Shown here: piece by piece, positions 24,833-58,500 of the stretch
Numbering within the stretch: the stretch's first letter is position 1
Layout of the letters: the number at the start of each line of letters is the position of its first letter
Assembly (NCBI GenBank): GCA_045660295.1
Contig: JAZRDN010000007.1
Span: forward strand, 5,438 to 69,437
DNA length: 64,000 nucleotides
Source: Eubacteriales bacterium
GTDB taxonomy: Bacteria > Bacillota > Clostridia > Oscillospirales > CAG-272
Reading direction: 5' to 3'
Position numbers and translations under genes: made by a program
The notes under the pieces: generated by a model
What the model saw: only the letters and a program-made list of their open reading frames with translations
What the model was told of the DNA's origin: nothing
Databases searched by the model: none

Positions 24833-25393
24833 ATGGACAAGATTCAAGGAATCAAGGATTTTGAAAGCAGAATCAAAAGAATCCTCATCACAGAGGAAGA
24901 AATCGACGCCGCTACAAAGAAGGTGGGCAAGGAAATAGACGCACTGTACGACGGACGCCCGATACTGCTTGTAAGCATTCTCAAGGGCTCGTTCGTATTT
25001 ATGTCAGACCTCTGCCGCGCGGTCTCTGTTCCCTGCGAGGTAGGCTTTATGTGCGCGAAAAGCTATTACAACGGCACTGTCTCGTCGGGCACAGTACAAA
25101 TCACAATGGACCTTGAGCAGGACATAAGCAAATATCACGTTGTAATCGTAGAGGACATTGTGGACACGGGAAGAACACTTAACGACGTTGTGGCGCTTCT
25201 TAAGAAACGCAACCCTCTTTCGATAAGGGTCGTAACACTCTTGGACAAGCCCTCAAGACGCTTGGTGGACTTCAATGCCGATATAGCTCTGTTCACCATT
25301 CCCGACCATTTTGTTATTGGCTACGGGCTTGATTGCGGCGAGCTTTACCGCAACCTTCCCTACATAGCAGAGTATAATCAGGACGTAAAGTAA
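24833..25393 (+). CDS. hpt: Hypoxanthine phosphoribosyltransferase
   Basis: ILKGSF, VIVEDIVDTG PRPP-binding motif, FVIGYGLD. RBS AAGGAG precedes ATG 24833. Confidence 0.93.
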   Translation: MDKIQGIKDFESRIKRILITEEEIDAATKKVGKEIDALYDGRPILLVSILKGSFVFMSDLCRAVSVPCEVGFMCAKSYYNGTVSSGTVQITMDLEQDISKYHVVIVEDIVDTGRTLNDVVALLKKRNPLSIRVVTLLDKPSRRLVDFNADIALFTIPDHFVIGYGLDCGELYRNLPYIAEYNQDVK

Positions 25394-25731: not shown

Positions 25732-26481
25732 CTATGAATTTGTGTTTTGGGCGTTTTCAAGAAGCGCCTTTACCTTTGGGTCATCCATTCTGATCTTGCA
25801 AAAAAGCTCCGCAAGCTCAAGGAGCGGTAATTCCAAATCAGAAACGGTCATAGTGCGTGTAAGCAAAGTTCCCTTCTTTCGCGTCACGTTGTATTCGTTG
25901 ACCTGCTCAACCAAAATCATTTTCCATGAATCTTGCATTCCTTGAGAGCCGGCAATTATCTGACAAACCGAAGATGCGTCTATTTTGCTCTTTGAAGAAA
26001 CAGCCACCTTATTAAGGTTATCCATAAGAACCTGCCTGTTCCACGAGCATTGGTGCATAATAAACGCAAGATTGTTTCCAAATCTAATGTTTTCAGGCTT
26101 CTTTTTACTGCTCGGATCGCGGCTTTGTAGCTTGTTCTTGATGAATCTGTTCATGTTGTTGAAGAAGCTGGCGTATTCCTCGGAGGTAAGCTGTGACATA
26201 ACGTCGTCAAAAAGCTCTCTGACCTCCTCCTCGCTTCGAGGCGTGCGCGCCGAGGCTCTTTTGAGGCTCACAGACGAAATCGACTCCGCAGAGCAAAGCC
26301 CGAACAGCCCCGCAACCTCATGGGCATATATGCCGCCCAGATCACGGAACAGCCTAAGCTCCTCACCCGCAAGCGCGTCAGCGGCAAACGACCAATAGAC
26401 AAACGCGCGTTTCTGATCCATCATAACGCCGTCACCTTCCGCATATTTTCGCCCGAGCTTTATCCAGTCATTCTTGTTCAT
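25732..26481 (-). CDS. Hypothetical protein with an N-terminal Sel1-like repeat and a possible XRE-like HTH
   Basis: LGRKYAEGDGVMMDQKRAFVYW is Sel1-like; RFGNNLAFIMHQ...IDASSVCQI is HTH-like. Own promoter TTGAAA-17-TACAAT. Confidence 0.55.
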   Translation of the reverse strand: MNKNDWIKLGRKYAEGDGVMMDQKRAFVYWSFAADALAGEELRLFRDLGGIYAHEVAGLFGLCSAESISSVSLKRASARTPRSEEEVRELFDDVMSQLTSEEYASFFNNMNRFIKNKLQSRDPSSKKKPENIRFGNNLAFIMHQCSWNRQVLMDNLNKVAVSSKSKIDASSVCQIIAGSQGMQDSWKMILVEQVNEYNVTRKKGTLLTRTMTVSDLELPLLELAELFCKIRMDDPKVKALLENAQNTNS

Positions 26482-26563
26482 ATCATTCTTCCGTCCTTGT
26501 TGTTAATAGAAATCTTCTGTCATTGTATCACATTATCCGACATTTTTCAAGGGGTAATTTACT

Positions 26564-26586
26564 AAAAAAGCCCCCGAAGGGGCTTT
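26564..26586 (-). terminator. Terminator closing the ESCRT-like three-gene unit
   Basis: AAAGCCCC-TTCG-GGGGCTTTTTT on the minus strand. Confidence 0.85.
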
Positions 26587-26610: not shown

Positions 26611-27813
26611 TTATTTGCGCTGTGCCAGATATTTCTGGTACACCATCAAATCTGTTTTGGGTGTCTTATAACCCTTTTCTTCATTGTACTTGATGTACTC
26701 GCCAAGCTCGTCGCCCTTTATACTCTTTGGGGAGTGGGCGATGACATCGTTGACGTCCTCGGTCGTAACCACCGAGGCTACGCCCGTCTCGTAATGTCTG
26801 AACAATGGTCTGTCGCCGATCCTCTCGCATATGGTAGAGATATCAGCCGAGCTATATCCCTCAAGGAAGTCAGCTATTGTGTCAAGGTTAACGTTGGAAG
26901 CAAGGGGCGGAACTCCGCCGCCAAGGCTCTTTTTAACAAGAAATCTTCTCGCTTCCTGATCGGGCAAGCCCACGTAGACCTGAGTATCAAGACGCTTACC
27001 GCGAAGGATAGCCGAGTCAATGCTGTCGGGGCGGTTTGTGGTTGCCACAAACACGATGCTACGGTCGGTATTAGCCTTTACCATAGCGTCAATTCCCTGC
27101 AAAAGCTCGTTTACTACACGGTTCATTTCGCCGTCCGCACCCTCGGTGCTCTTTGAGCGCTTACCCGCGATCGCGTCAAACTCGTCAACGAACGCCAGAA
27201 TCCTTGGCGAATCGTCGGCAATGATGCTATCCATATAAGCCTTGATATTGCGTATAGACTGTCCTAAACGGGAATCAATTATCTCACTCGCCTTGCAACG
27301 GTGCATAGACATGTCAAGCTCGTTGGCAAGAGCCTCGGCAAACATGGTCTTTCCCGTACCGGGAGGTCCGTACAAAAGCAACTGTATCGTGCGGCTGGGC
27401 TTCTTCTTGTACATGCCCATGACCTCGGGGTGATTGATAGGACCAATTACCTTGTTTCTGAGCAGAGCCTTTACGTCGTCAAGACCGGCGATGTCGCTGA
27501 AGCGGATCTCGCTTCTGGTGGTTTCGGCAGCGAACTTGGGCGCCCTATCGTCATCCGCGTCCTGCGCGGAAACCGAAACGTGAGCGTTTCTGAGTCCCTC
27601 AAGACGAGCTGCCCAAAGATTCATTTTCTGCTTATAAATGTTACGCAGGTAGTCCTTTTCGCCTTTATCCTCAGCAATACGGGCGGCAAGCTGATAGGCT
27701 TTGGAAGCCGCCTCACGCGCCGCATCATACTGCTTACCGTTGATGGCGTTATTATAAGCCACCTCACATTCGCCAATCAGACGATTGACTTTTTCATAGT
27801 AGTATTCAGCCAT
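26611..27813 (-). CDS. AAA+ ATPase with a MIT-like N-terminal three-helix bundle (Vps4-like architecture)
   Basis: FSDIAGLDDVK, LLYGPPGTGKT, FVDEFD, TNRPDSIDSAILR. N-terminal helices end in YKQKMNLWAARLEGL. The C-terminal helix SIKGDELGEYIKYNEEKG is meiotic-clade-like. The AAA+ call is firm; MIT/Vps4 is inferred. Confidence 0.8.
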   Translation of the reverse strand: MAEYYYEKVNRLIGECEVAYNNAINGKQYDAAREAASKAYQLAARIAEDKGEKDYLRNIYKQKMNLWAARLEGLRNAHVSVSAQDADDDRAPKFAAETTRSEIRFSDIAGLDDVKALLRNKVIGPINHPEVMGMYKKKPSRTIQLLLYGPPGTGKTMFAEALANELDMSMHRCKASEIIDSRLGQSIRNIKAYMDSIIADDSPRILAFVDEFDAIAGKRSKSTEGADGEMNRVVNELLQGIDAMVKANTDRSIVFVATTNRPDSIDSAILRGKRLDTQVYVGLPDQEARRFLVKKSLGGGVPPLASNVNLDTIADFLEGYSSADISTICERIGDRPLFRHYETGVASVVTTEDVNDVIAHSPKSIKGDELGEYIKYNEEKGYKTPKTDLMVYQKYLAQRK

Positions 27814-27846
27814 AGTACCTTCTCTCCGTAAAAACAACAGCCGATA

Positions 27847-28443
27847 TTATTCGCCTATCTTTGTATTATCGTTCTTAAGAGAGGTAAAAGGAACCTCAGC
27901 CACGGTTGCGCCGACATTGTCAAGACCTGCGGTCTTCTGGAACTCTGCCTTCATCGTATCGAAAATGTTATTAGCCTCCTCAGATGTCTGTACATCGGAG
28001 TTCTTAAGAATAACGTCCATCTGATTGTCAAAAGCGTCGAGCATATTGTCCCACTTGTCGAGATTCTGGATAATGTCGCCGCCCTTGAGAGTGTTCATAA
28101 GGTTACCAACGCCGTTCATAACGTCCTCAAGACGTCCGATGCTCTCAGCATATTTCTGATGCATCTGAGCGCGCCTCGCACGGGTATTCATATCGCGCCA
28201 AACCTTGAGAATGCGTTCGGAAATGCTCATCTCCATGCAAAGCATCTTTGCCTCGGTCTCATCACCTGCCGCAAAAGCCTCCATAATACGGCTCTTGTAT
28301 TCGTCACGTTCCTTCTGAGCGTTCTTTACGTTTGTTGCGCACTCCTCGCAAAAAGCCGCGAGCTTCTTCTTCTGCTGATTAGCCAAAACCTGCTTTTCAA
28401 ACTCGATTTCCGCCTTTTTCTTCTTGCTCATAAACAATGCCAT
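27847..28443 (-). CDS. Snf7/CHMP (ESCRT-III)-like helical protein, 198 aa
   Basis: Basic N-terminus (MALFMSKKKK), hairpin turn IMEAFAAGDETEAKM, acidic C-terminal half, AGLD and a Pro-containing tail. Recognised by pattern only. Confidence 0.65.
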   Translation of the reverse strand: MALFMSKKKKAEIEFEKQVLANQQKKKLAAFCEECATNVKNAQKERDEYKSRIMEAFAAGDETEAKMLCMEMSISERILKVWRDMNTRARRAQMHQKYAESIGRLEDVMNGVGNLMNTLKGGDIIQNLDKWDNMLDAFDNQMDVILKNSDVQTSEEANNIFDTMKAEFQKTAGLDNVGATVAEVPFTSLKNDNTKIGE

Positions 28444-28488
28444 GTTATTACTCCTCCGTCAAATTGAAAATTTATTTGTTTTTAGGGA

Positions 28489-29679
28489 TCAAACGTTAGT
28501 TTCGCTGTTCTTGACAGTCTGCTCCGTCTTTGCGAACGGAACATCAGCCTCTTTTTCCATATTCTTGAACATCTCGGCAAGCTCGGGGTCAAGCTCAACG
28601 TCAGCGCCGTTGTATTCATCAACAGTGGGTATGTTAGAATTTATACCGTCCTTTAAGCCATCGAGAGCGAACACTATCTTTTCGTAATCGTGCAAGATCT
28701 CGCCAAGAGCCTTGTTCTTGAAGAACTTCTTTATATCTCCAACGTCAACACCCGAATTCTTAATATAAATGACCTTTTCCTTAAGCAGCACCAGCTTAGT
28801 CTGATTGCTTGCGCCTTGATCGACCAGCATCTGAGTCGAATTTCTCTGCGCCTTAAGCTGCTGGAACTTGATATTACCGCTCTTAAGCTCTACGTTCCTG
28901 CCCTTTTCAGCAAGAGCCTTCAGGCTTACAGCCATTTCGTCCATAGCCTTCTGGAGCGACTCAGATTTCTGTCTCAGACCGTAAAGCTCAGCCTCAAAGT
29001 TGGAAACGATATCGTCGCTCATAGAAACAAACGCGTCCCAATCCTTTACGCGAGTCTTCATGATCTCCATAGAGCTCTGATCGACTCCGCTGTCATTGAG
29101 CTTGCTGATAGCGTCATTGATAGTGTTGATAACTACTGTTACGTTATCGTTTGTACGCAAAGCGCGGTCGATAAGCGTAAACTGGCTATCGGCGATAGCC
29201 TTCTTCTCTACGTCGTCTCCCGCGGAAACATATGCCGAACGAAAATCCTGAACAAGGTCGAATATCTCGTCAACTCTGTCACTCTTGCAACAGGGATACT
29301 TTCCGTCGAACAAGCCCTGATAAAGAGTGTGAATACGCTTTGTAAACCCGTCTATATTAACATCGGCAAGATCGCGTATGAAAGCCGCCAAGTGAGACAG
29401 GCGCTTAGCGTTTACCGTCTTTCCGAAATTCTGCGCGTCAAGCTGAACACCGAGCTGCTTATTAACCGTGTTAAGCGCCGCCAGCTTATCCTCAACGCCG
29501 ACGCTTTCCGAACGGATAAATCTTACCATATCGGTCTTTGCTTGCTCCCACTGCGCGCTCTGCTCGCCGTCAACAGGAGTTTTGAGTCCGTCTGTGTTGC
29601 GAACAAACTTAAGTCTGGCTTCCTCCAACTGTTTCTTCAGCTTTTTCTTGCCTCCGAACAATTTTTCCAAAAAGGTCAT
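28489..29679 (-). CDS. Helical protein with a C-terminal Snf7/ESCRT-III-like region and an N-terminal extension, 396 aa
   Basis: Amphipathic MTFLEKLFGGKKK start; C-terminal coiled hairpin with turn ALAEKGRNVEL; acidic DVELDPELAEMF; ADVPF tail. Confidence 0.55.
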   Translation of the reverse strand: MTFLEKLFGGKKKLKKQLEEARLKFVRNTDGLKTPVDGEQSAQWEQAKTDMVRFIRSESVGVEDKLAALNTVNKQLGVQLDAQNFGKTVNAKRLSHLAAFIRDLADVNIDGFTKRIHTLYQGLFDGKYPCCKSDRVDEIFDLVQDFRSAYVSAGDDVEKKAIADSQFTLIDRALRTNDNVTVVINTINDAISKLNDSGVDQSSMEIMKTRVKDWDAFVSMSDDIVSNFEAELYGLRQKSESLQKAMDEMAVSLKALAEKGRNVELKSGNIKFQQLKAQRNSTQMLVDQGASNQTKLVLLKEKVIYIKNSGVDVGDIKKFFKNKALGEILHDYEKIVFALDGLKDGINSNIPTVDEYNGADVELDPELAEMFKNMEKEADVPFAKTEQTVKNSETNV

Positions 29680-29722
29680 AATTTTCCCTCCAAAAAATCA
29701 AAAGATTTGTTTTGTTGTATAC

Positions 29723-29751
29723 AGTATATCACCAAAATATCGAAGTGTCAA
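29723..29751 (-). promoter_or_regulatory. SigA promoter of the Snf7-like/Snf7-like/AAA unit
   Basis: TTGACA-17-TATACT with an extended TG. Confidence 0.8.
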
Positions 29752-29792: not shown

Positions 29793-30659
29793 TTATTTAT
29801 CCGACTTACCCTCAAGTCTCTTTTTGCCGTTGTCATCTCCGCTCAATTCGGCCTTCAGCTCCTTGATGGTCTTGTACTTATCCACGTACTCCTCAAGGAA
29901 GCTTACGTCCTCATCCATATTGGCGATGATCGCTTCATGCTCGTTCTTCTTTTCGACCCCGCCCACGTAATCGCTCCAAGCCGTACTGTCCATACGGTTA
30001 AAGGGGCTCGTGTTAGAGAAGCGGAATTTTGTCTGCAAGCCCAAACTTCTGAGACTGCTATTGGCTTTTATCTCGGATTGGCGCACAATTTCCGCATCGT
30101 CAATAGCCTCAGCCAACTCACTAACAGTCTTGACGCCTCTCCACAAAGCGGTTACGTCTCTGCAACACGTACCGACCAAATTTCTTATTTCGTCATGCAA
30201 GGTGGAAAATGTCATGGTGCTAAGGTTGGCATGCGCCTTTGTAAAGGCTGTTCCAGACGTAGTAATGCTCGGCTCATAATGCACAAGCAACGTCATTTTC
30301 GCGGGAACAACTCTCGCTTCATCGACCTTGATGTCCACGTCGCAAGGGTATCCAAGAATGTTCTCACACTTTCCGTTTGTATAGCTTCCAAGATTGTTAG
30401 TAACGCAATAGAGCTTGGATCTTTTAAGCTCATCCACCGTGGTGCGCCACTCTCCGTCGCTATTCACCTCAATAGGGGTGGCATCAGCGTCCTGACCCGT
30501 GATCTTTACAAGGTCACTCATCTCGGGGATCTTGACAACCACCTTAGCGGGAGAGATACGAAAATCTATATCTATTCTCTGAAATATCTCATCCTCGCCC
30601 ATTTTCACACAGACGTACTGATAACGGCTCAAGCCGCCTCTGACATCAACACTGTACAT
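29793..30659 (-). CDS. Hypothetical protein, probable SPFH (band 7)-like domain
   Basis: A beta-rich N-terminus, then a strand-helix-helix-strand pattern (TLHDEIRNLVG...SLRSLGLQTKFRFSNTSP) and a charged helical tail. Confidence 0.5.
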   Translation of the reverse strand: MYSVDVRGGLSRYQYVCVKMGEDEIFQRIDIDFRISPAKVVVKIPEMSDLVKITGQDADATPIEVNSDGEWRTTVDELKRSKLYCVTNNLGSYTNGKCENILGYPCDVDIKVDEARVVPAKMTLLVHYEPSITTSGTAFTKAHANLSTMTFSTLHDEIRNLVGTCCRDVTALWRGVKTVSELAEAIDDAEIVRQSEIKANSSLRSLGLQTKFRFSNTSPFNRMDSTAWSDYVGGVEKKNEHEAIIANMDEDVSFLEEYVDKYKTIKELKAELSGDDNGKKRLEGKSDK

Positions 30660-30678: not shown

Positions 30679-31554
30679 TTATAATAACATTTTCAAAGTC
30701 TCGATAGTGACGCCGAAGCAAACCCCCGTCTCAGGAGCCACAACGTTGACCGCCTGCGCCACTCCCGGCATAACCTCAACGCCGACCGTCTCAACTCCGG
30801 TAGGCGAGCCCGTGAGCAGACCCACCACTTCGCCGCGCACGTTATACAGCGGACCTCCGCTATTGCCGTGCTGAGCCGTACCGTTCATAAGTATGACCTC
30901 GCGATGCTCCTTGAAGTGAGGATGACGCTTAACTCTGTCCTTTATGCTGAATCTGTTGTAGGACAGACCCCAGCCTCTCGAGTTTCCTATGGAAATGACC
31001 TCATCGCCCGGCTTAAGCGCGTGGCTGTCGCCCAGCGCGTTGGCAAGCTCGCTGATATTACTCGGCTTTTCTCTGACGAAATCTATGATAGCCACATCCT
31101 GATCGGCACTGTATCTGACGATACGCGCGGGATATCTCTTGGACTTGTGCTCGATAACAACAACATTTGCGGGAGCGCTCATATCGTTGTTAAGTATAAC
31201 ATGCGCGTTAGTTCCGATCATGCCGTTCGGAAGGAAGAAACCCGAGCCCGCGCCGCAATCGGTAAGCACCTCGACTGCCTTGTCAAGCAATTCCTCAAAC
31301 AAGTGCGATCCCCACGTATGTATTTCATCGGAAGGATTAGCGGGGCGCTTATCACCTGCCGAGGGATCTGAGGGAAGATATTTTTCTATAACCTCGTTAA
31401 CCTCTTTGGTGATCCAACCGTTTTTATTTTTCTGCGTAATCTTACTGTTCCATGCCGCTTCTCCTGAATCGGAACGGGTGGTTCGGTTACCGCAATACGG
31501 GCAAGCAACGCTTCCGCCCTTAAGCTCCATGTTGCAGTTTGGACATCTCAACAT
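30679..31554 (-). CDS. Zinc-ribbon + trypsin-like serine protease (cytoplasmic)
   Basis: CPNC...CPYC N-terminus; triad TNAHVI, QDVAII, GNSGGPL; no signal peptide. Confidence 0.88.
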   Translation of the reverse strand: MLRCPNCNMELKGGSVACPYCGNRTTRSDSGEAAWNSKITQKNKNGWITKEVNEVIEKYLPSDPSAGDKRPANPSDEIHTWGSHLFEELLDKAVEVLTDCGAGSGFFLPNGMIGTNAHVILNNDMSAPANVVVIEHKSKRYPARIVRYSADQDVAIIDFVREKPSNISELANALGDSHALKPGDEVISIGNSRGWGLSYNRFSIKDRVKRHPHFKEHREVILMNGTAQHGNSGGPLYNVRGEVVGLLTGSPTGVETVGVEVMPGVAQAVNVVAPETGVCFGVTIETLKMLL

Positions 31555-31745: not shown

Positions 31746-32219
31746 TCAATTACCTCGCCTTGAAAGCACCGCCAAGCTCACCGCAAGCAGGTTTGACACC
31801 ACCTCCATCAGGCTCTTTTTTGCGATTTCGGCCTGCGCCTCGGACGCTATTTTTATCGCTATTTCATTATCTATCAAACATATTTTAACACGGCTGTTCA
31901 GCCTTCCCAGCATATCGGAAAATTCCGATTTATCAACCCCATAAGTTTTTTTCAAATATTTAAAGGTATCTCCACCGTCTGTAACGAAGGTCCCGCTGTC
32001 GTTTTTTACACTGTACACGCGAAAGGCTTCCCCGCCCGCTTTTTCGCCCGGCAGGAAAAAGGACTTTTTCAGTGTCAAGTTTGTCAGCTCCTGTTTATTA
32101 TACGTGGTAATGCGGGAGGGGGTTCCAAAAAAGGAATACATATCCCACACCCGGTTTACCAAATTAGCGGAAATGTTATTTTTCTCCTCCCGATTATCGG
32201 TTCGTTTTTTGTTTCCCAT
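31746..32219 (-). CDS. Hypothetical protein, DUF1828-like
   Basis: The FVTDGGDTFKYL motif resembles DUF1828-type proteins. Confidence 0.45.
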   Translation of the reverse strand: MGNKKRTDNREEKNNISANLVNRVWDMYSFFGTPSRITTYNKQELTNLTLKKSFFLPGEKAGGEAFRVYSVKNDSGTFVTDGGDTFKYLKKTYGVDKSEFSDMLGRLNSRVKICLIDNEIAIKIASEAQAEIAKKSLMEVVSNLLAVSLAVLSRRGN

Positions 32220-37904: not shown

Positions 37905-38327
37905 TCATTTAATATATTGATTTGAAAAGGCAGTCATTTTTCTCAGAAATTTCGGCAGAAACGTTTGGTCTATGCAATTCTCGAATTTCAGCTCCTGCCA
38001 AAACCCATTTGCACAATTAGAATTCAACATACCGGATACAAGAATATGTCCTTTTTTGTCACCGGAAAACAATATGCACTGCTGATTCCCGTATGGTTCT
38101 TGAATTTTCGCTTCACCCTTCAAGGAATCATATAAGTTTTGCAGTTCATTGCAGAAAGTCGGTATATCTTTTATATCAATATCCATTGTTGTAGATGCCG
38201 AAAAGCCCACACTTGAAACCGAAACAGTTAAAATGGTATTGGACGGATAAGAAATATCCGATTCAAACACTTGAAAATCTAATAACAAACTAAAACTTTC
38301 GCTTTCTAATAAAATAGTGTCGTTCAT
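37905..38327 (-). CDS. Hypothetical protein, WapI-like immunity protein
   Basis: Pattern VSSVGFSA...LQNLYDSLKGEAKI...GDKKGHILVSG...IDQTFL resembles WapI-type immunity proteins. Confidence 0.55.
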   Translation of the reverse strand: MNDTILLESESFSLLLDFQVFESDISYPSNTILTVSVSSVGFSASTTMDIDIKDIPTFCNELQNLYDSLKGEAKIQEPYGNQQCILFSGDKKGHILVSGMLNSNCANGFWQELKFENCIDQTFLPKFLRKMTAFSNQYIK

Positions 38328-38671
38328 TTTGTGTTCTCCTTCGCCGTGTTGATGGATGCTATCAAAATTCTTTTCACCTCAACGCATCTATCCAAAATTG
38401 TTTTATCGTAATAGTATCCGCTTTCAATTAAAAGTTCAAGCCAATATTCCGTTTCGGAGCATTCTTTCAAGGCAATATGTAACTTTGCCACAAAATCCGC
38501 TTTGCCGTGGGCATAAAATGCTTCACGAATATTCGCACCAATGCTTGTTCCAGAACGCAGAAACTGATTGATGAGCGCACTTTCGCACTTCGCTTCTCTC
38601 AACACCTTGCAAGCGCGAATAACCTCTAACGCAAACGCTTTCGACTTTATCATTAAAGGACTTTCGGACAT
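38324..38671 (-). CDS. Four-helix-bundle protein (23S rRNA IVP/Avd-like family)
   Basis: KSKAFALEVI, QFLRSGTSIGANIREA, KLHIALKECSETEYWLELL. Confidence 0.9.
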   Translation of the reverse strand: MSESPLMIKSKAFALEVIRACKVLREAKCESALINQFLRSGTSIGANIREAFYAHGKADFVAKLHIALKECSETEYWLELLIESGYYYDKTILDRCVEVKRILIASINTAKENTK

Positions 38672-38774
38672 AATACTTATCCTCCGTTTTGACTTTATTC
38701 CATTATACCATAAAACCTATTACTTTTCAACCTTTATAATAAAAATTGCTTTTCGCCTTTGCGAAAAGCTACCT

Positions 38775-38903
38775 CACTTCTTCACTATTCACTATTACTT
38801 ATTACCTTGCCAAAAATCTCCTCGGACGGATTTAGTGAAAAGTGAAAAGTGAAGAGTGAAAAAGTAAAAATCTCCCCGAACTTCGTCCGAGGAGATTTTT
38901 GGC
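38775..38903. repeat. Heptamer tandem repeats and a 19-bp inverted repeat between the four-helix gene and tRNA-Gln
   Basis: TCACTAT/TTACTTA and AGTGAAA tandem runs. GCCAAAAATCTCCTCGGAC (38809-38827) is the perfect inverse of 38885-38903. Confidence 0.75.
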
Positions 38904-38974
38904 TGGGATGGCCGGATTCGAACCGACGGGTGCCAGAGTCAAAGTCTGGTGCCTTACCGCTTGGCGACATCCCA
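38900..38974 (-). tRNA. tRNA-Gln(UUG)
   Basis: TGGGATG/CATCCCA acceptor stem, CCAGA-CT-TTG-AC-TCTGG anticodon arm, GTTCGAATC T loop, encoded CCA. Confidence 0.97.
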
Positions 38975-39316: not shown

Positions 39317-39507
39317 ATTTTGAAAACCTCTTTGAGGGTCAAGCAAAAAGACCCATTGACCCAAACATAGCCCCCAAGCGCTCGGCGCTTGGGACTATGG
39401 GGGCTTTTATCAGGCACGCGTCATCTCACCGAAACTGTACAAATGCTTGACTTTGGTTACTGATATACTATACTGAAATCAGGCAAATTCATTACTTGGA
39501 GGACACT

Positions 39508-41430
39508 ATGAAAAAGACACTGTCGTTTTTTATCTTACTTGTGCTTATAACCATTACATTGGTATCCTGCGGCGGAATCAAGGTCACTTGGCTTGACGGA
39601 GACGGAACTGTGCTCTACACAGAAAAGCTATCGGCAAACAACACCTCTATTCCTCAAAAGCCTCTGCCCGAGGATAACGACAACTGGGATTACACCGAGT
39701 GGAAGGAGATAGCGACTGACGAAAAAGCTATCACCTACGAGGCGCAAAGGATCGAGATAGAAAAGCATGTTTGGAAGGACGCCGACGGAACTGTGCTCAA
39801 CACAGCGGTCATTCCCAAGGGAAATGATGTGCCCAAATTCGCGCTCCCTGCCGATACGTCCCACTGGGATTACACCGAATGGGAGAAGTCGGTAAACGGC
39901 AACCTTACCACTTACACGGCGTTGCGTACCGCGGTTGAGACCGTAATCTGGACAGACGTTGACGGAACTGTGCTTTACACAGTATACTTAAAGCCCGGTG
40001 AGACTATTCCCGAACGTTTTATTCCCAACGACACCGCAGACTGGCATTACACAGGCTGGAGACGCACCACTGCCGAGGACGGCGGTGTTAAATTCGTAGC
40101 TGAGCGTATTGCCAAGGAAAAGGTGCACTGGCTTGACATAGACGGCAAGCTCCTTTACACCGACGGAGTTGTGCCAAACACCGAGCTTGAAATGCGTGCG
40201 CTCCCCAAAAACAGTGCGAAATGGAACTACAATGATTGGGTAGAGGTAACAGAAGCGGGCGGCGAGCGCACCTTTAAGGCAACAGGCAACATAAACCCGA
40301 ACTACTTCAAGGGCAACGTGTTCCAGATAATAACCTACGACCTGTACGGAAATACGCTTTCGGCGGGCACGGGATTTATATTCAACAAAAGCGGCTGGTT
40401 TATTACCAACAGCCACGTTATGGAGAACGCGGTAAAAGCATCGGCAATATTTGAGATAGAAAACTACACAGAGGGCAACTCCTACACGACTCTCGAAATT
40501 GATCGCGGATATCACGACAGTCCCCAAAAGGATATATTTATCGGTCGCATTTCCGACTACTCCAAGATATCCAACAAATATCAGGATATCCCTATGGTGC
40601 GCGATTACGAGGTGGGTGACGTGACCTATTCGGTAGGCTATCCCAACGTATCGGTAAAAATGGAGATACACGCGGGTGAGGTAGCAAGCGAGCACTCACA
40701 GGACTTTAACGACCTTTACAGCAAGCTATACAGCGGAGTGACCTACATTCCTTCGACCAGCTATATCGCCCCCGGAAGCAGCGGCGGTATTCTCGTCAAC
40801 GAAAATCTCGAGGTTATAGGAATGACCACGCAGGCGCTTCAGACAAAGAAGGGCGACTTTATCATCGGAGCTTCGATAAGAGTATTCAACTATCTCAACA
40901 CTACCAGAACCGTGACAACCGCCAACGAAAAGTCGTTAGTAGAGGTTCTACACCCCGAAAACGGCGCGGCGCTGAAGATATTCCTCGCGGCAGGAAAGCA
41001 TAAAAATTGCGCCGGTCTTCTTAAGGATGATACCGGATACTATTATCTGCTCACGTGGGAAAACACCTATGACAAATATGAAGAAGCATACGTGTTTACC
41101 GTACACGAAAACGGTGTGATAGCAGGTAATATATCGAGAATGTGGTATGATAGCAACGACATCATGACATCTACCGTCTTTGGCGTATACACGGGTTCAA
41201 GCTCGCTCAACGGATTTGGCTACCTGTACACCTATAACTGGGGCTCAGGAAGCTCCATGACACTGACGTCAACGAGCATAAATTACTCCTCAACCGTATC
41301 GCAGACCTTGAAGGTCTACGACACCGCCGCAAACAATACAACGATAAAGGCAAGCAACGTTGAGCACGCAAAAAAGTGCTTCAACGAAACTTACGTCTGG
41401 CTCCGCGACCTGCTTAAGGAATTTGAGTAA
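39508..41430 (+). CDS. Lipoprotein with four tandem W-rich beta repeats and a trypsin-like serine protease domain
   Basis: LVSC lipobox; repeats of W.D.DG.VL.T...P....W.Y..W; TNSHVM, DIFIG, APGSSGG. Confidence 0.82.
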   Translation: MKKTLSFFILLVLITITLVSCGGIKVTWLDGDGTVLYTEKLSANNTSIPQKPLPEDNDNWDYTEWKEIATDEKAITYEAQRIEIEKHVWKDADGTVLNTAVIPKGNDVPKFALPADTSHWDYTEWEKSVNGNLTTYTALRTAVETVIWTDVDGTVLYTVYLKPGETIPERFIPNDTADWHYTGWRRTTAEDGGVKFVAERIAKEKVHWLDIDGKLLYTDGVVPNTELEMRALPKNSAKWNYNDWVEVTEAGGERTFKATGNINPNYFKGNVFQIITYDLYGNTLSAGTGFIFNKSGWFITNSHVMENAVKASAIFEIENYTEGNSYTTLEIDRGYHDSPQKDIFIGRISDYSKISNKYQDIPMVRDYEVGDVTYSVGYPNVSVKMEIHAGEVASEHSQDFNDLYSKLYSGVTYIPSTSYIAPGSSGGILVNENLEVIGMTTQALQTKKGDFIIGASIRVFNYLNTTRTVTTANEKSLVEVLHPENGAALKIFLAAGKHKNCAGLLKDDTGYYYLLTWENTYDKYEEAYVFTVHENGVIAGNISRMWYDSNDIMTSTVFGVYTGSSSLNGFGYLYTYNWGSGSSMTLTSTSINYSSTVSQTLKVYDTAANNTTIKASNVEHAKKCFNETYVWLRDLLKEFE

Positions 41431-56052: not shown

Positions 56053-56129
56053 CGGGGTGTGGCACAGTTTGGTAGTGCGCATGGTTCGGGACCATGAGGC
56101 CGCAGGTTCGAATCCTGTCACTCCGACCA
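56053..56129 (+). tRNA. tRNA-Pro(CGG)
   Basis: CGGGGTG/CACTCCG acceptor stem, CATGG-TT-CGG-GA-CCATG anticodon arm, GTTCGAATC, CCA. Confidence 0.97.
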
Positions 56130-56421
56130 AATAAGCACCGTAATTATGATACGAAACCGTATCGTAAAAGCGGTGCTTATTTTTTATCGGCAAGCCTTGA
56201 TTTATAAGGTTTTTCTTGTTTTGGGGCGCGAGATAAGTGTCCGTATCAAAATTATAAGTTTTCTTTCTACTGAATTTTTGAGGACTTAAACTATCAAAGT
56301 CCACATTTGATTATTGATTCTGACACTTAACAAAAGATAAGTGTCAGAGTGTGAAACGGCTTGAAAATTCGTAGAAGTTATGATATAATTATTACATCAA
56401 CATCGAATCGAGGTGAGCATT

Positions 56422-58500
56422 GTGGCAAAAAAAAAAGAAAAACAATACGTGAGCGATAATGCTCAACTTATGGCAGAATGGAACTGGGAAAGGAATACGG
56501 ATTTAACCCCATCGCAATTAACCCTTGGTAGCGGACAAAAGGTATGGTGGAAATGTAGCAAAAAACACGAATGGCAAGCAGAGATAGTTAATAGAAATAA
56601 AGGAAATAGGTGCCCATATTGCTCAAACAGAAAAGTTTTAAAAGGATATAATGATTTACAAACGATTAACCCCGCGTTAGCAAAAGAATGGAATTTTGAA
56701 AAAAATAATGGATTAACACCTATAGATGTATCTCCCAATAGCAATAAAAAGGCTTGGTGGAAATGTAGCAAAGGACACGAGTGGCAAGCGAGGATAAACA
56801 GTAGAAATAGCGAGAATGGATGTCCATATTGCTCAGGGCGATACGTCGTTAAAGGTGAAAATGATTTACAAACAGTCAATCCAACTTTAGCTGAAGAATG
56901 GAATTATGAAAAAAATAATGGATTAACTCCTGCGGATGTATTACCCAATAGCAACAAAAAAGCATGGTGGAAATGTAGCAAAGGACATGAATGGCAAGTA
57001 ACGATAGCTCTTAGAAATAATGGGAACGGATGTCCATATTGTGCAGGAAAAAAAGTTTTAAAAGGCTTTAACGATTTGCAAACAGTTAACCCAACTTTGG
57101 CTAAAGAATGGAATTATGAAAAAAACAACGAATTAACACCTGTAAATGTAACGCCTAATAGCAATAAAAAAGTATGGTGGAAATGTCAGAAAGGACACGA
57201 ATGGCAATCGACAATAAACAATAGAAACAGAGGAAATGAATGCCCTGTTTGTAACTCTGAGCGAAAAACATCTTTCCCTGAATATGCGCTTGTTTTTTAT
57301 TTCAAAAAATATGGTTTAGAGGTAGTACATTCGTATAGGGAGCAAGGTTATGAATTAGATATTTATATCCCATCCCAAAAAACTGCTATTGAATATGACG
57401 GTTATTTTTGGCACAGAAATAAAACAGAAGAAGATTTAGAAAAAAATCGCAAGTGTGAAAGAGATGGGGTAAAATTATATAGAATCAGAGAAGGTTTGCT
57501 CCCATTGAATGACAGTTCTATTGATTACACTATTCAAAAGGATCAAAAAGATTTATCGACAATCATTGAAAAAGTTTTAAGTAAAATTGTTGGCACGAGC
57601 GTCGACGTTAATCTAAAAAGAGACACTATTGCCATAGAAAATTTGCGAGAACACACCGAAAAAGAAACCTCTCTTTTATTTTCTAAGCCGGAAATAGCAA
57701 ATGAATGGAATTATGAAAAGAACGGCAATCTAAGACCGGAACATTTTGCAACGAACAGTCATAAAAAAGTTTGGTGGCAGTGTAGCGAAGGACACGAATG
57801 GCAAGCGGCGATATCTAATAGGAATAAAGGGCGCGGGTGTCCGTATTGTTCTGGTAAAAAAGTTTTAAAGGGCTATAATGACTTGCAAACTACTAATCCA
57901 ACCTTAGCCAAAGAGTGGAATTATGAAAAGAATTATGGATTAAGTCCTATGGATGTAACGCCGAATAGTAATATAAAAGTATGGTGGAAGTGTAGTAAAG
58001 GACATGAGTGGGAAACAACTATAAATAACAGAAATAATGGAAACAACTGCCCATATTGTTCTAACCGATACGCCGTTAAAGGTGAAAATGATTTGCAAAC
58101 AGTTAATCCAACCTTAGCCAAAGAGTGGAACTATGAAAAAAATTATGGATTAAGTCCTATGGATGTAACGCCGAATAGTAATAAAAAAGTATGGTGGAAG
58201 TGCAGCAAAGGACATGAGTGGGAAACGACTATAAATAACAGAAATAACGGAAATGGATGTCCATATTGTTCAGGTAGATACAGCGTTAAAGGTGAAAATG
58301 ACTTACAAACAATCAATCCAACTTTAGCAAAAGAATGGAATTATGAAAAAAACAACGGATTAACACCTGCTGATGTGTTACCTAAGAGCAACAAAAAGGT
58401 ATGGTGGAAGTGTGGCATGGGACACGAGTGGCAAGCGAGAATTATTGATAGAAACAAAGGGAACGGTTGCCCTATTTGCAGAAAAAATAAAAAGCATTAA
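56422..58500 (+). CDS. Protein with eight treble-clef/zinc-ribbon repeats (DUF4379-like) around a PD-(D/E)xK/Vsr-like nuclease domain
   Basis: WW.C..GHEW......R.....CP.C occurs 4 times before and 4 times after the central ELDIYIPSQKTAIEYDGYFWH. Confidence 0.85.
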   Translation: MAKKKEKQYVSDNAQLMAEWNWERNTDLTPSQLTLGSGQKVWWKCSKKHEWQAEIVNRNKGNRCPYCSNRKVLKGYNDLQTINPALAKEWNFEKNNGLTPIDVSPNSNKKAWWKCSKGHEWQARINSRNSENGCPYCSGRYVVKGENDLQTVNPTLAEEWNYEKNNGLTPADVLPNSNKKAWWKCSKGHEWQVTIALRNNGNGCPYCAGKKVLKGFNDLQTVNPTLAKEWNYEKNNELTPVNVTPNSNKKVWWKCQKGHEWQSTINNRNRGNECPVCNSERKTSFPEYALVFYFKKYGLEVVHSYREQGYELDIYIPSQKTAIEYDGYFWHRNKTEEDLEKNRKCERDGVKLYRIREGLLPLNDSSIDYTIQKDQKDLSTIIEKVLSKIVGTSVDVNLKRDTIAIENLREHTEKETSLLFSKPEIANEWNYEKNGNLRPEHFATNSHKKVWWQCSEGHEWQAAISNRNKGRGCPYCSGKKVLKGYNDLQTTNPTLAKEWNYEKNYGLSPMDVTPNSNIKVWWKCSKGHEWETTINNRNNGNNCPYCSNRYAVKGENDLQTVNPTLAKEWNYEKNYGLSPMDVTPNSNKKVWWKCSKGHEWETTINNRNNGNGCPYCSGRYSVKGENDLQTINPTLAKEWNYEKNNGLTPADVLPKSNKKVWWKCGMGHEWQARIIDRNKGNGCPICRKNKKH

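Follow-up and report, generated by a model that had tools for sequence, protein, structure and literature searches.

Do bacteria possess an ESCRT-III-type membrane polymer that is served by its own Vps4-like ATPase? PspA and Vipp1 are the accepted bacterial relatives of ESCRT-III (PMC8281802), and a comparative study found Vps4 to be restricted to archaea and eukaryotes (PMC10936438). According to a 2025 review of prokaryotic ESCRT-III proteins, a Vps4-like ATPase appears to be absent from bacteria, and the disassembly of the bacterial relatives is therefore an open matter (PMC7619361). The question is raised anew by a locus in a 64,000-nucleotide stretch of DNA (hereafter the window) from a Eubacteriales bacterium (assembly GCA_045660295.1, contig JAZRDN010000007.1, positions 5,438 to 69,437). 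Based on the sequence of this stretch alone, an earlier reading (the original prediction) had proposed that positions 26611–29751 encode two Snf7/CHMP-like proteins and an AAA ATPase with an MIT domain. Our analysis suggests, with a probability of about 0.6, that these three genes encode a bacterial version of the principle on which ESCRT-III and Vps4 work, in which a polymer is paired with a Vps4-style unfoldase, possibly for defence.

The genes and their transcription signals are arranged as follows (positions refer to the window; protein lengths are in amino acids, aa):

28489–29679, minus strand: gene (open reading frame call) for a 396-aa all-helical protein with a MTFLEKLFGGKKK N-terminus, a helical domain (residues 1–195), a long hairpin (214–309), a disordered linker, and a C-terminal helix with tail

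27847–28443, minus strand: gene (open reading frame call) for a 198-aa protein, probably of the ESCRT-III superfamily, with a basic N-terminus, an alpha1–alpha2/3 hairpin with an AAGDExEA tip, alpha4, a C-terminal helix and a tail

26611–27813, minus strand: gene with a probable ATG start for a 400-aa ATPase, whose helical N-domain is joined by a linker to one classical AAA cassette, followed by a C-terminal helix

27583–27813, minus strand: MIT-like three-helix N-domain of the ATPase (residues 1–77), assigned by profile comparison

29723–29751, minus strand: sigma-70-type promoter, TTGACA-17 nt-TG-TATACT, 5' of the 396-aa gene

about 26564–26586, minus strand: intrinsic terminator hairpin with a T run, read from the sequence

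With 11 of 12 matches and a TG extension, the promoter (29751–29723) is the top-scoring site of the region. The terminator consists of a GC-rich hairpin, AAAGCCCC-TTCG-GGGGCTTT, followed by a T run; it was missed by a consensus scan, yet is evident by eye. The genes are separated by gaps of 45 and 33 nt, each of which holds a ribosome-binding site. Promoter, three co-oriented reading frames and terminator are thus all present as originally described, and the peptide motifs quoted at the time (MALFMSKKKK, IMEAFAAGDETEAKM, DIIQNLDKWDNMLDAFD, MTFLEKLFGG, SRLGQS and LRGKRLD) all occur in the translations. The list of open reading frames gives the ATPase as 408 aa (26611–27837) with a TTG start; judging from its position behind a GGAGAGAAGG ribosome-binding site, the ATG at 27813 is more likely the true start, which would yield a protein of 400 aa. 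All three reading frames lie in one shared frame, with only stop codons and short spacers between them, which is probably a coincidence.

It is quite likely that the 198-aa protein is an ESCRT-III-superfamily member, and one that stands closer to the Snf7/CHMP class than to PspA. An AlphaFold2 model based on the single sequence (predicted local distance difference test score, pLDDT, of 64) contains helices at residues 7–59, 62–94 and 96–119 (kinked), 124–147 and 154–171, followed by a disordered tail. At this moderate confidence, the model displays the layout of a long alpha1/alpha2–3 hairpin followed by alpha4 and alpha5. When the model was compared with the PDB using Foldseek, the top 15 matches were all ESCRT-III proteins (CdvB, CdvB2, CHMP2A/CHMP3 and CHMP1B; probability up to 1.00, E-values of ~0.05), and PspA and Vipp1 were absent among the top 50. 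In a library of viral structures, a phage PspA/IM30 protein ranked first and a giant-virus Snf7 protein fourth.

Profile comparison gave a concordant picture. A profile of five members of the 198-aa family was aligned by hhalign with a reference profile of CHMP1B, CHMP2A, CHMP3, CHMP4B and Snf7, resulting in a score of 33.3 (P = 2.7e-4) and a collinear match of residues 1–155 with residues 1–148. Reversed references scored 15 and block-shuffled ones 14.8 ± 2.7, and none of the 120 shuffles attained the observed value; the accepted ESCRT-III/PspA pair scored 37.7 at equal alignment depth. The aligned features include the N-terminal MxxF-basic motif, the tip of the hairpin (IMEAFAAGDETEAK versus IKKAIQKGNMEVAR) and alpha4 (LDAFDNQMD versus MDKFEHQFE). 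Against PspA/Vipp1, the same family scored 21.0 over 46 columns that were out of register, a score reached by 16 of 120 shuffles. The fold matches and the collinear profile match, together with the background-level score for PspA, therefore support the original assignment of this protein to the Snf7/CHMP class as opposed to plain PspA. Its net charge changes from +6 in the N-terminal half to −10 in the C-terminal half, and from +8 to −16 in the homologue from a divergent locus, L009; P0004 and P0006 are without this asymmetry.

Most of the reference sequences used here were compared with the PDB. Those of the CHMPs, Snf7, the MIT domains, Vipp1, Escherichia coli PspA, PAN and katanin (katanin p60 A-like 1) match deposited chains at ~2 bits per residue, while those of Bacillus subtilis PspA and FtsH, and of the AAA portions of Vps4 and spastin, entered the analysis without this comparison.

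The ATPase encoded next to the 198-aa protein has a single AAA cassette (PF00004, E = 5.8e-32), and alignments showed that its GPPGTGKT, VDEFD and TTN motifs are intact, as are R271 and R274. In 400-aa numbering, Walker A spans G149–T156, Walker B includes D210–E211, sensor-1 is N260, and R271 and R274 are the arginine fingers. We compared the N-domain, as a five-member profile, with the MIT domains of VPS4A, VPS4B, yeast Vps4, spastin and Sulfolobus CdvC. The resulting hhalign score of 28.0 (P = 8e-5, probability 61%) was obtained in the expected register, pairing QYDAA with NYEEA and IYKQKMNLWAARLEGLRN with IRAKCVQYLDRAEKLKD. None of 120 shuffles reached this score (null 12.2 ± 2.5) and reversed references remained at background. 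Neither the Pfam MIT model nor a profile search against the PDB matched the N-terminal 77 residues, so that the MIT-like N-terminus of the original prediction is borne out at the level of profiles and not by the curated model. At the other end of the protein, DELGEYIKYNEEKGY can be aligned to the last helix of spastin, with which it shares the motif Y..[WY]N..G. Among NCBIfam models, CdvC matches the ATPase best (152.8 bits, residues 36–386 of the 408-aa reading), and its reach to residue 386, along with the alignment to the spastin C-terminus, agrees with the meiotic-clade-like terminal helix that had been proposed. The CdvC score has to be read against a cut-off of 650 and is level with the scores for CDC48 (151.4) and PAN (148.4), all of which fall far under their cut-offs.

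A possible further link between the three proteins lies in two C-terminal tails:

28534–28596, minus strand: C-terminal helix and ADVPF tail of the 396-aa protein (residues 362–382), a candidate MIT-interacting motif

27886–27984, minus strand: C-terminal amphipathic helix (residues 155–172) and AEVPF tail (182–186) of the 198-aa protein, a candidate MIT-interacting motif

In ESCRT-III tails, both helical and extended motifs are known to mediate binding to MIT domains (PMC9477494). The 198-aa and 396-aa proteins have in common a terminal amphipathic helix and an [AE][ED]VP[FI] tail, which in the window take the form, in both proteins, of a Φ-Φ-x-x-M-[KE] helix with A[ED]VPF after it. Local alignment of the last 55 residues of the two proteins gave scores of 36 in the window, 46 in L009 and 42 in the related locus L005 (shuffle p of 0.03, 0.0005 and 0.017, respectively), compared with 17–29 between divergent loci. 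In L009, the two tails read NDELEEIVGNLKK and NDVFEELVGELKR. Because the tails of two different proteins change together from locus to locus, they point to a common binding partner for the 198-aa and the 396-aa protein, a behaviour to be expected of MIT-interacting motifs. The hydrophobic spacing in the tails resembles the helical type-1 MIT-interacting motif, a resemblance that serves as a lead only.

The association of the genes is conserved and extends upstream of the promoter, where three more genes belong to the same block:

31746–32219, minus strand: 157-aa protein, first gene of the conserved six-gene block, identified by co-conservation

30679–31554, minus strand: 291-aa protein with a zinc ribbon and a trypsin-like serine protease domain (Trypsin_2 match), co-conserved upstream

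29793–30659, minus strand: 288-aa protein, co-conserved upstream

L001, which is near-identical, and the divergent L009, a locus of a Clostridia metagenome-assembled genome from roe-deer colon, carry all six genes in unchanged order; hence the conserved unit comprises six genes. The upstream genes of these two loci encode a ~160-aa protein, a zinc-ribbon trypsin-like protease and a ~280-aa protein, and the serine protease is kept in each of the three loci whose sequence extends to this region. For the 288-aa family, family scans and a profile search against the PDB yielded no match to Band_7/SPFH, to any other family or to a PDB entry. L005 carries the trio (large helical protein, ~195-aa protein and ATPase) in the same order, at identities of 22%, 27% and 56%, and L004 and L006 show the same gene order in partial form. 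Across L001, L005, L009 and the partial L004 and L006, identities of the trio range from 22 to 91%, and the ATPase gene lies directly downstream of the 198-aa gene in each of these loci as well as in the window. The trio is thus co-conserved in divergent loci, as the original prediction had required. Its single three-gene transcription unit stands in part: the trio does have a promoter and a terminator, but it forms the downstream half of a larger conserved unit.

The homologue search covered 5.8 billion clustered proteins and 1.8 billion representatives, in which only a handful of relatives were found. Word-based searches returned close relatives only (83–91% identity), and an exhaustive HMMER search returned four proteins, one of which, a 1612-aa repeat protein, was rejected as spurious. 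One more locus, L009, came from pattern scans that covered species genomes, metagenomes and viral contigs. The module was not found in phage and plasmid collections searched by tblastn, nor in viral contigs by pattern scan. Overall, it is present in one of 14 species genomes of the genus and in one of 301 of the order, with five loci in total. It is an accessory module, and its extreme rarity limits the weight of the finding. A 152-aa reading frame containing RAIRAGDETMISK (L008, 1381–1839, genome G042) gave a weak profile match to the hairpin-tip motif (E = 0.0013) and was judged unrelated on account of its mobile-element-like gene surroundings.

The block is located between hpt, which ends at 25393, and tRNA-Gln (38900–38974). 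Also encoded in this interval are a 249-aa protein, a PDC-S37/Hhe helicase-nuclease of 1570 aa (1351 bits), a WapI-like immunity protein and a four-helix protein. The Hhe-like neighbour on which a defence role had first been suggested is, by model match, an Hhe/PDC-S37 defence helicase. This layout fits a tRNA-linked variable island; no integrase was seen in it. Synteny around hpt is not kept in the same-genus genome that was compared to trace the borders of the island.

Several results weigh against reading the trio as an ESCRT-III/Vps4-type machine, and the first concerns the 396-aa protein. Its AlphaFold2 model, built from a four-sequence alignment (pLDDT 73.6), shows a 95-residue hairpin (214–309), then short helices, a disordered stretch and a terminal helix (365–377). 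Foldseek matched this model to generic helical proteins only, with ESCRT-III appearing first at rank 49; low-probability matches to components of alpha-pore-forming toxins were not credited. By hhalign, the 396-aa family scored a non-significant 18.7 against ESCRT-III (5 of 120 shuffles reach this score) and showed no relationship to the 198-aa family. The second Snf7-like gene of CHMP7-like layout that was initially proposed thus has no significant profile or fold match to Snf7, and the claim is unsupported, although the layout of hairpin and tail would be compatible with it.

A second group of results concerns detection. The curated Pfam models Snf7, PspA_IM30 and MIT are unmatched at E ≤ 1–10. 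In particular, Snf7 (PF03357) does not match at E ≤ 1, nor at E ≤ 10 in a six-frame search of the genome, and PspA_IM30 (PF04012) does not match the 198-aa protein. The Snf7 model is insensitive, because Sulfolobus also falls below the cut-off in the same search. Scans of both helical proteins with Pfam, NCBIfam and PADLOC produced nothing usable. The Foldseek E-values of the 198-aa protein are weak (0.05–0.1), with TM-scores of ~0.4, and derive from the single-sequence model; a profile search against the PDB ranks syntaxin over CdvB and CHMP1B, all of them non-significant; and the family alignments contain only four to five sequences.

The third group concerns the motor itself. The AAA core is closest to the D2 domain of p97/CDC48 (135–149 bits, versus 104–119 for Vps4). 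Its second region of homology (SRH) reads ILRGKRLD and has the two-residue, RPGR-type insertion of CDC48, PAN and FtsH, which the meiotic clade lacks. Throughout the family, ILRGKRLD aligns with the RPGR(F/L)D of p97, PAN and FtsH and not with the meiotic RR-RF-x-KR. The aromatic position of pore loop 1 is R, L or Y across the family (SRLGQS in the window, SLLGES in L005, SYLGES in L009), so that the conserved K-W/Y-x-G aromatic is missing, which is odd for a threading motor. Both features had been raised as caveats from the start, and the alignments confirm them. In a small tree, the ATPase family falls beside the CDC48/PAN/FtsH group with 88% support, the references for FtsH and for the AAA domains of Vps4 and spastin being unvalidated sequences. 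The original prediction depended on the ATPase not grouping firmly with CDC48 or FtsH; the tree leans towards the CDC48/PAN/FtsH side and yields no firm placement inside CDC48 or FtsH. The ATPase is therefore Vps4-like in architecture and in context, and not by descent: the first part of the proposed Vps4 likeness stands, whereas the CDC48/PAN-type SRH and the core closer to CDC48 D2 argue against a Vps4 orthologue. Its motor would instead derive from a CDC48/PAN-like part of the classical AAA clade, with the likeness to Vps4 being architectural.

This affinity of the motor opens the way to a different explanation, in which the block is an IetAS-like defence system that acts by proteolysis or signalling. 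A CDC48-like unfoldase would act with the trypsin-like protease, the helical proteins would serve as sensors, adaptors or substrates, and any resemblance they bear to ESCRT-III would be a by-product of long-helix composition. The block is like IetAS in that a serine protease is genomically linked to a classical AAA ATPase within the surroundings of a defence island; the protease is co-conserved, the AAA core is closest to CDC48 D2/PAN, curated ESCRT-III and MIT models do not match, and the ATPase scores 142 bits with the PADLOC IetA models. However, the NCBIfam IteA model (NF042959) reaches 129 bits (128.7) against a cut-off of 510, which is no better than CDC48, PAN or CdvC. The protease is of the Trypsin_2 type with a zinc ribbon and not a subtilase such as IetS, it is set off by a separate promoter-bearing gap, and four more genes, including the ESCRT-III-like one, are conserved with the pair. 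The collinear CHMP/Snf7 profile match, the top structural matches consisting of ESCRT-III proteins only, and the MIT-like N-domain would all go unexplained. We therefore consider this explanation unlikely.

PspA_IM30 proteins are common in bacteria generally. They are absent from this genome (G000) and from 40 of 41 relatives in the order; the lineage manages without a recognisable ESCRT-III relative, the module being an extra found in one species. One could thus regard the trio as a housekeeping module for envelope stress or membrane repair, a functional stand-in for the missing PspA that has no part in defence. Bacterial proteins of the ESCRT-III superfamily are known for membrane maintenance (PMC7619361, PMC8281802), and the N-termini of both helical proteins resemble the lipid-binding helix alpha0. 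Yet the distribution within genus and order given above shows that the lineage lives without the module, which lies in the variable hpt–tRNA-Gln island along with the Hhe/PDC-S37 helicase and the WapI-like immunity gene; both points count against a housekeeping role, which is quite unlikely. Finally, that generic coiled coils merely lie beside an unrelated AAA ATPase and resemble ESCRT-III by chance among helical proteins would fit the weak E-values, shallow alignments, low-confidence single-sequence model, the ranking of syntaxin over CdvB and the generic matches of the 396-aa model, but is very improbable given two independent shuffle controls (z of 6–7, 0 of 120 reaching the observed score), reversed references at background, two different structure libraries that rank ESCRT-III-superfamily proteins first, a gene order kept at 22–56% identity, and tail motifs that co-vary within loci.

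Returning to the preferred reading of a polymer paired with an unfoldase, a mechanism can be sketched. The 198-aa Snf7/CHMP-type subunit would polymerise on the inner face of the membrane, which it would contact through its basic N-terminus. The 396-aa protein may be a partner, nucleator or adaptor with the same docking helix and tail. The MIT-like N-domain of the ATPase would dock on the tails, and the single AAA ring would extract or unfold subunits, leading to ATP-driven disassembly and turnover of the polymer. The zinc-ribbon trypsin-like protease encoded upstream, presumably cytoplasmic, may regulate, trigger or activate the polymer. As the block lies in an island that is rare and horizontally distributed, next to an Hhe-like helicase, a role in conflict or stress, be it phage defence or membrane rescue, appears likeliest. 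A bolder version is doubtful: that the block is a complete, separately assembled bacterial ESCRT-III/Vps4-type machine, in which a Snf7-class filament former and a partner with tails like MIT-interacting motifs are joined to an MIT-AAA unfoldase made from a CDC48/PAN-like motor and coupled to the zinc-ribbon serine protease, the whole acting as a mobile membrane effector of anti-phage defence or abortive infection and representing either a convergent re-invention of Vps4 or a relic of the transition from CDC48 to Vps4.

How does the module relate to known systems? With archaeal CdvB/CdvC and eukaryotic ESCRT-III/Vps4 it shares a small hairpin subunit with a basic N-terminus, an alpha1–alpha4 core and a candidate C-terminal tail motif, as well as a subunit gene that adjoins the gene of an ATPase with an MIT-like N-domain, one cassette and a C-terminal helix. 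Adjacency to an ESCRT-III gene, the operational criterion for Vps4 of Makarova et al., 2024 (PMC10936438), applies to this ATPase. Unlike in those systems, the curated Snf7, MIT and CdvC models all stay under threshold, the SRH is LRGKRLD (CDC48/PAN type) where Vps4 has RRRFE-R, and the conserved pore-loop aromatic is lacking. There is no sign of CdvA, of an ESCRT-II winged-helix partner or of a Vta1-binding beta-domain, the host is a bacterium and the genes form an accessory island set. PspA/Vipp1 (IM30) belong to the same superfamily, one homologue of the 198-aa protein begins with MGIFNIF like PspA, and the top match in the viral library was, as mentioned, a phage PspA/IM30 protein. In contrast to the Psp system, the profile comparison is non-significant, PspB, PspC and PspF partners are absent and a dedicated classical AAA ATPase is present instead. 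From CDC48/VCP the ATPase differs by having one cassette and a helical N-domain in place of two cassettes and a double-psi-barrel (TIGR01243, 151 against a cut-off of 803).

Bacterial neighbourhoods that combine the PspA/Snf7 clade with classical AAA+ proteins were described by Ravi et al., 2024 and interpreted as ATP-dependent membrane remodelling (PMC11237479). Their cases involve an ATPase of two AAA domains with an inactive first domain, operons linked to transporters, or an archaeal-type Vps4 paired with a tetratricopeptide-repeat protein with six transmembrane segments (TPR+6TM) instead of Snf7 (PMC11237479). Since these associations are already on record, the general idea is not new. 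The statement in the original prediction that bacteria do not usually pair ESCRT-III with Vps4 consequently needs qualification: it agrees with the 2025 review, which regards a Vps4-like ATPase as apparently absent (PMC7619361), but PspA/Snf7–AAA+ associations had been noted computationally (PMC11237479). The present module differs from those cases in its single-cassette ATPase with an MIT-like domain, its two tail-sharing helical proteins and its protease block. In the literature, we found no description of this family or of the six-gene arrangement. The evidence is moderate, and the module is a real and rare variant of the ESCRT-III-plus-AAA theme, one that has probably gone undescribed so far.

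If the reading is correct, a bacterial operon joining a Snf7-class subunit, tail motifs and an MIT-like AAA ATPase would alter the picture of Vps4 as absent from bacteria, and would offer a small and tractable case in which to test polymer-plus-unfoldase logic. It would also bear on the origin of Vps4 from CDC48-like motors, by convergence or through an intermediate. Should the island context be meaningful, membrane remodelling of the ESCRT-III kind would join the mechanisms of bacterial conflict.

Some further features of the window were observed around the block. A 249-aa reading frame (25732–26481, minus strand) lies directly 3' of the terminator and has its own promoter-like site at 26550–26522; it matched no family, and the contigs of the related loci stop short of its position. 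Just past the Hhe-like helicase, positions 37905–38974 hold the genes for the WapI-like immunity protein (140 aa) and for the four-helix protein (115 aa), which is of the 23S-rRNA-intervening-sequence type, followed by tRNA-Gln. A second gene for a trypsin-like protease is found beyond tRNA-Gln (39496–41430, plus strand; 644 aa, Trypsin_2 at residues 291–443). Between 56000 and 59000, right after tRNA-Pro (56053–56129), the G+C content drops to 0.34–0.37 over a 695-aa reading frame (56413–58500), and this stretch may be another inserted element.

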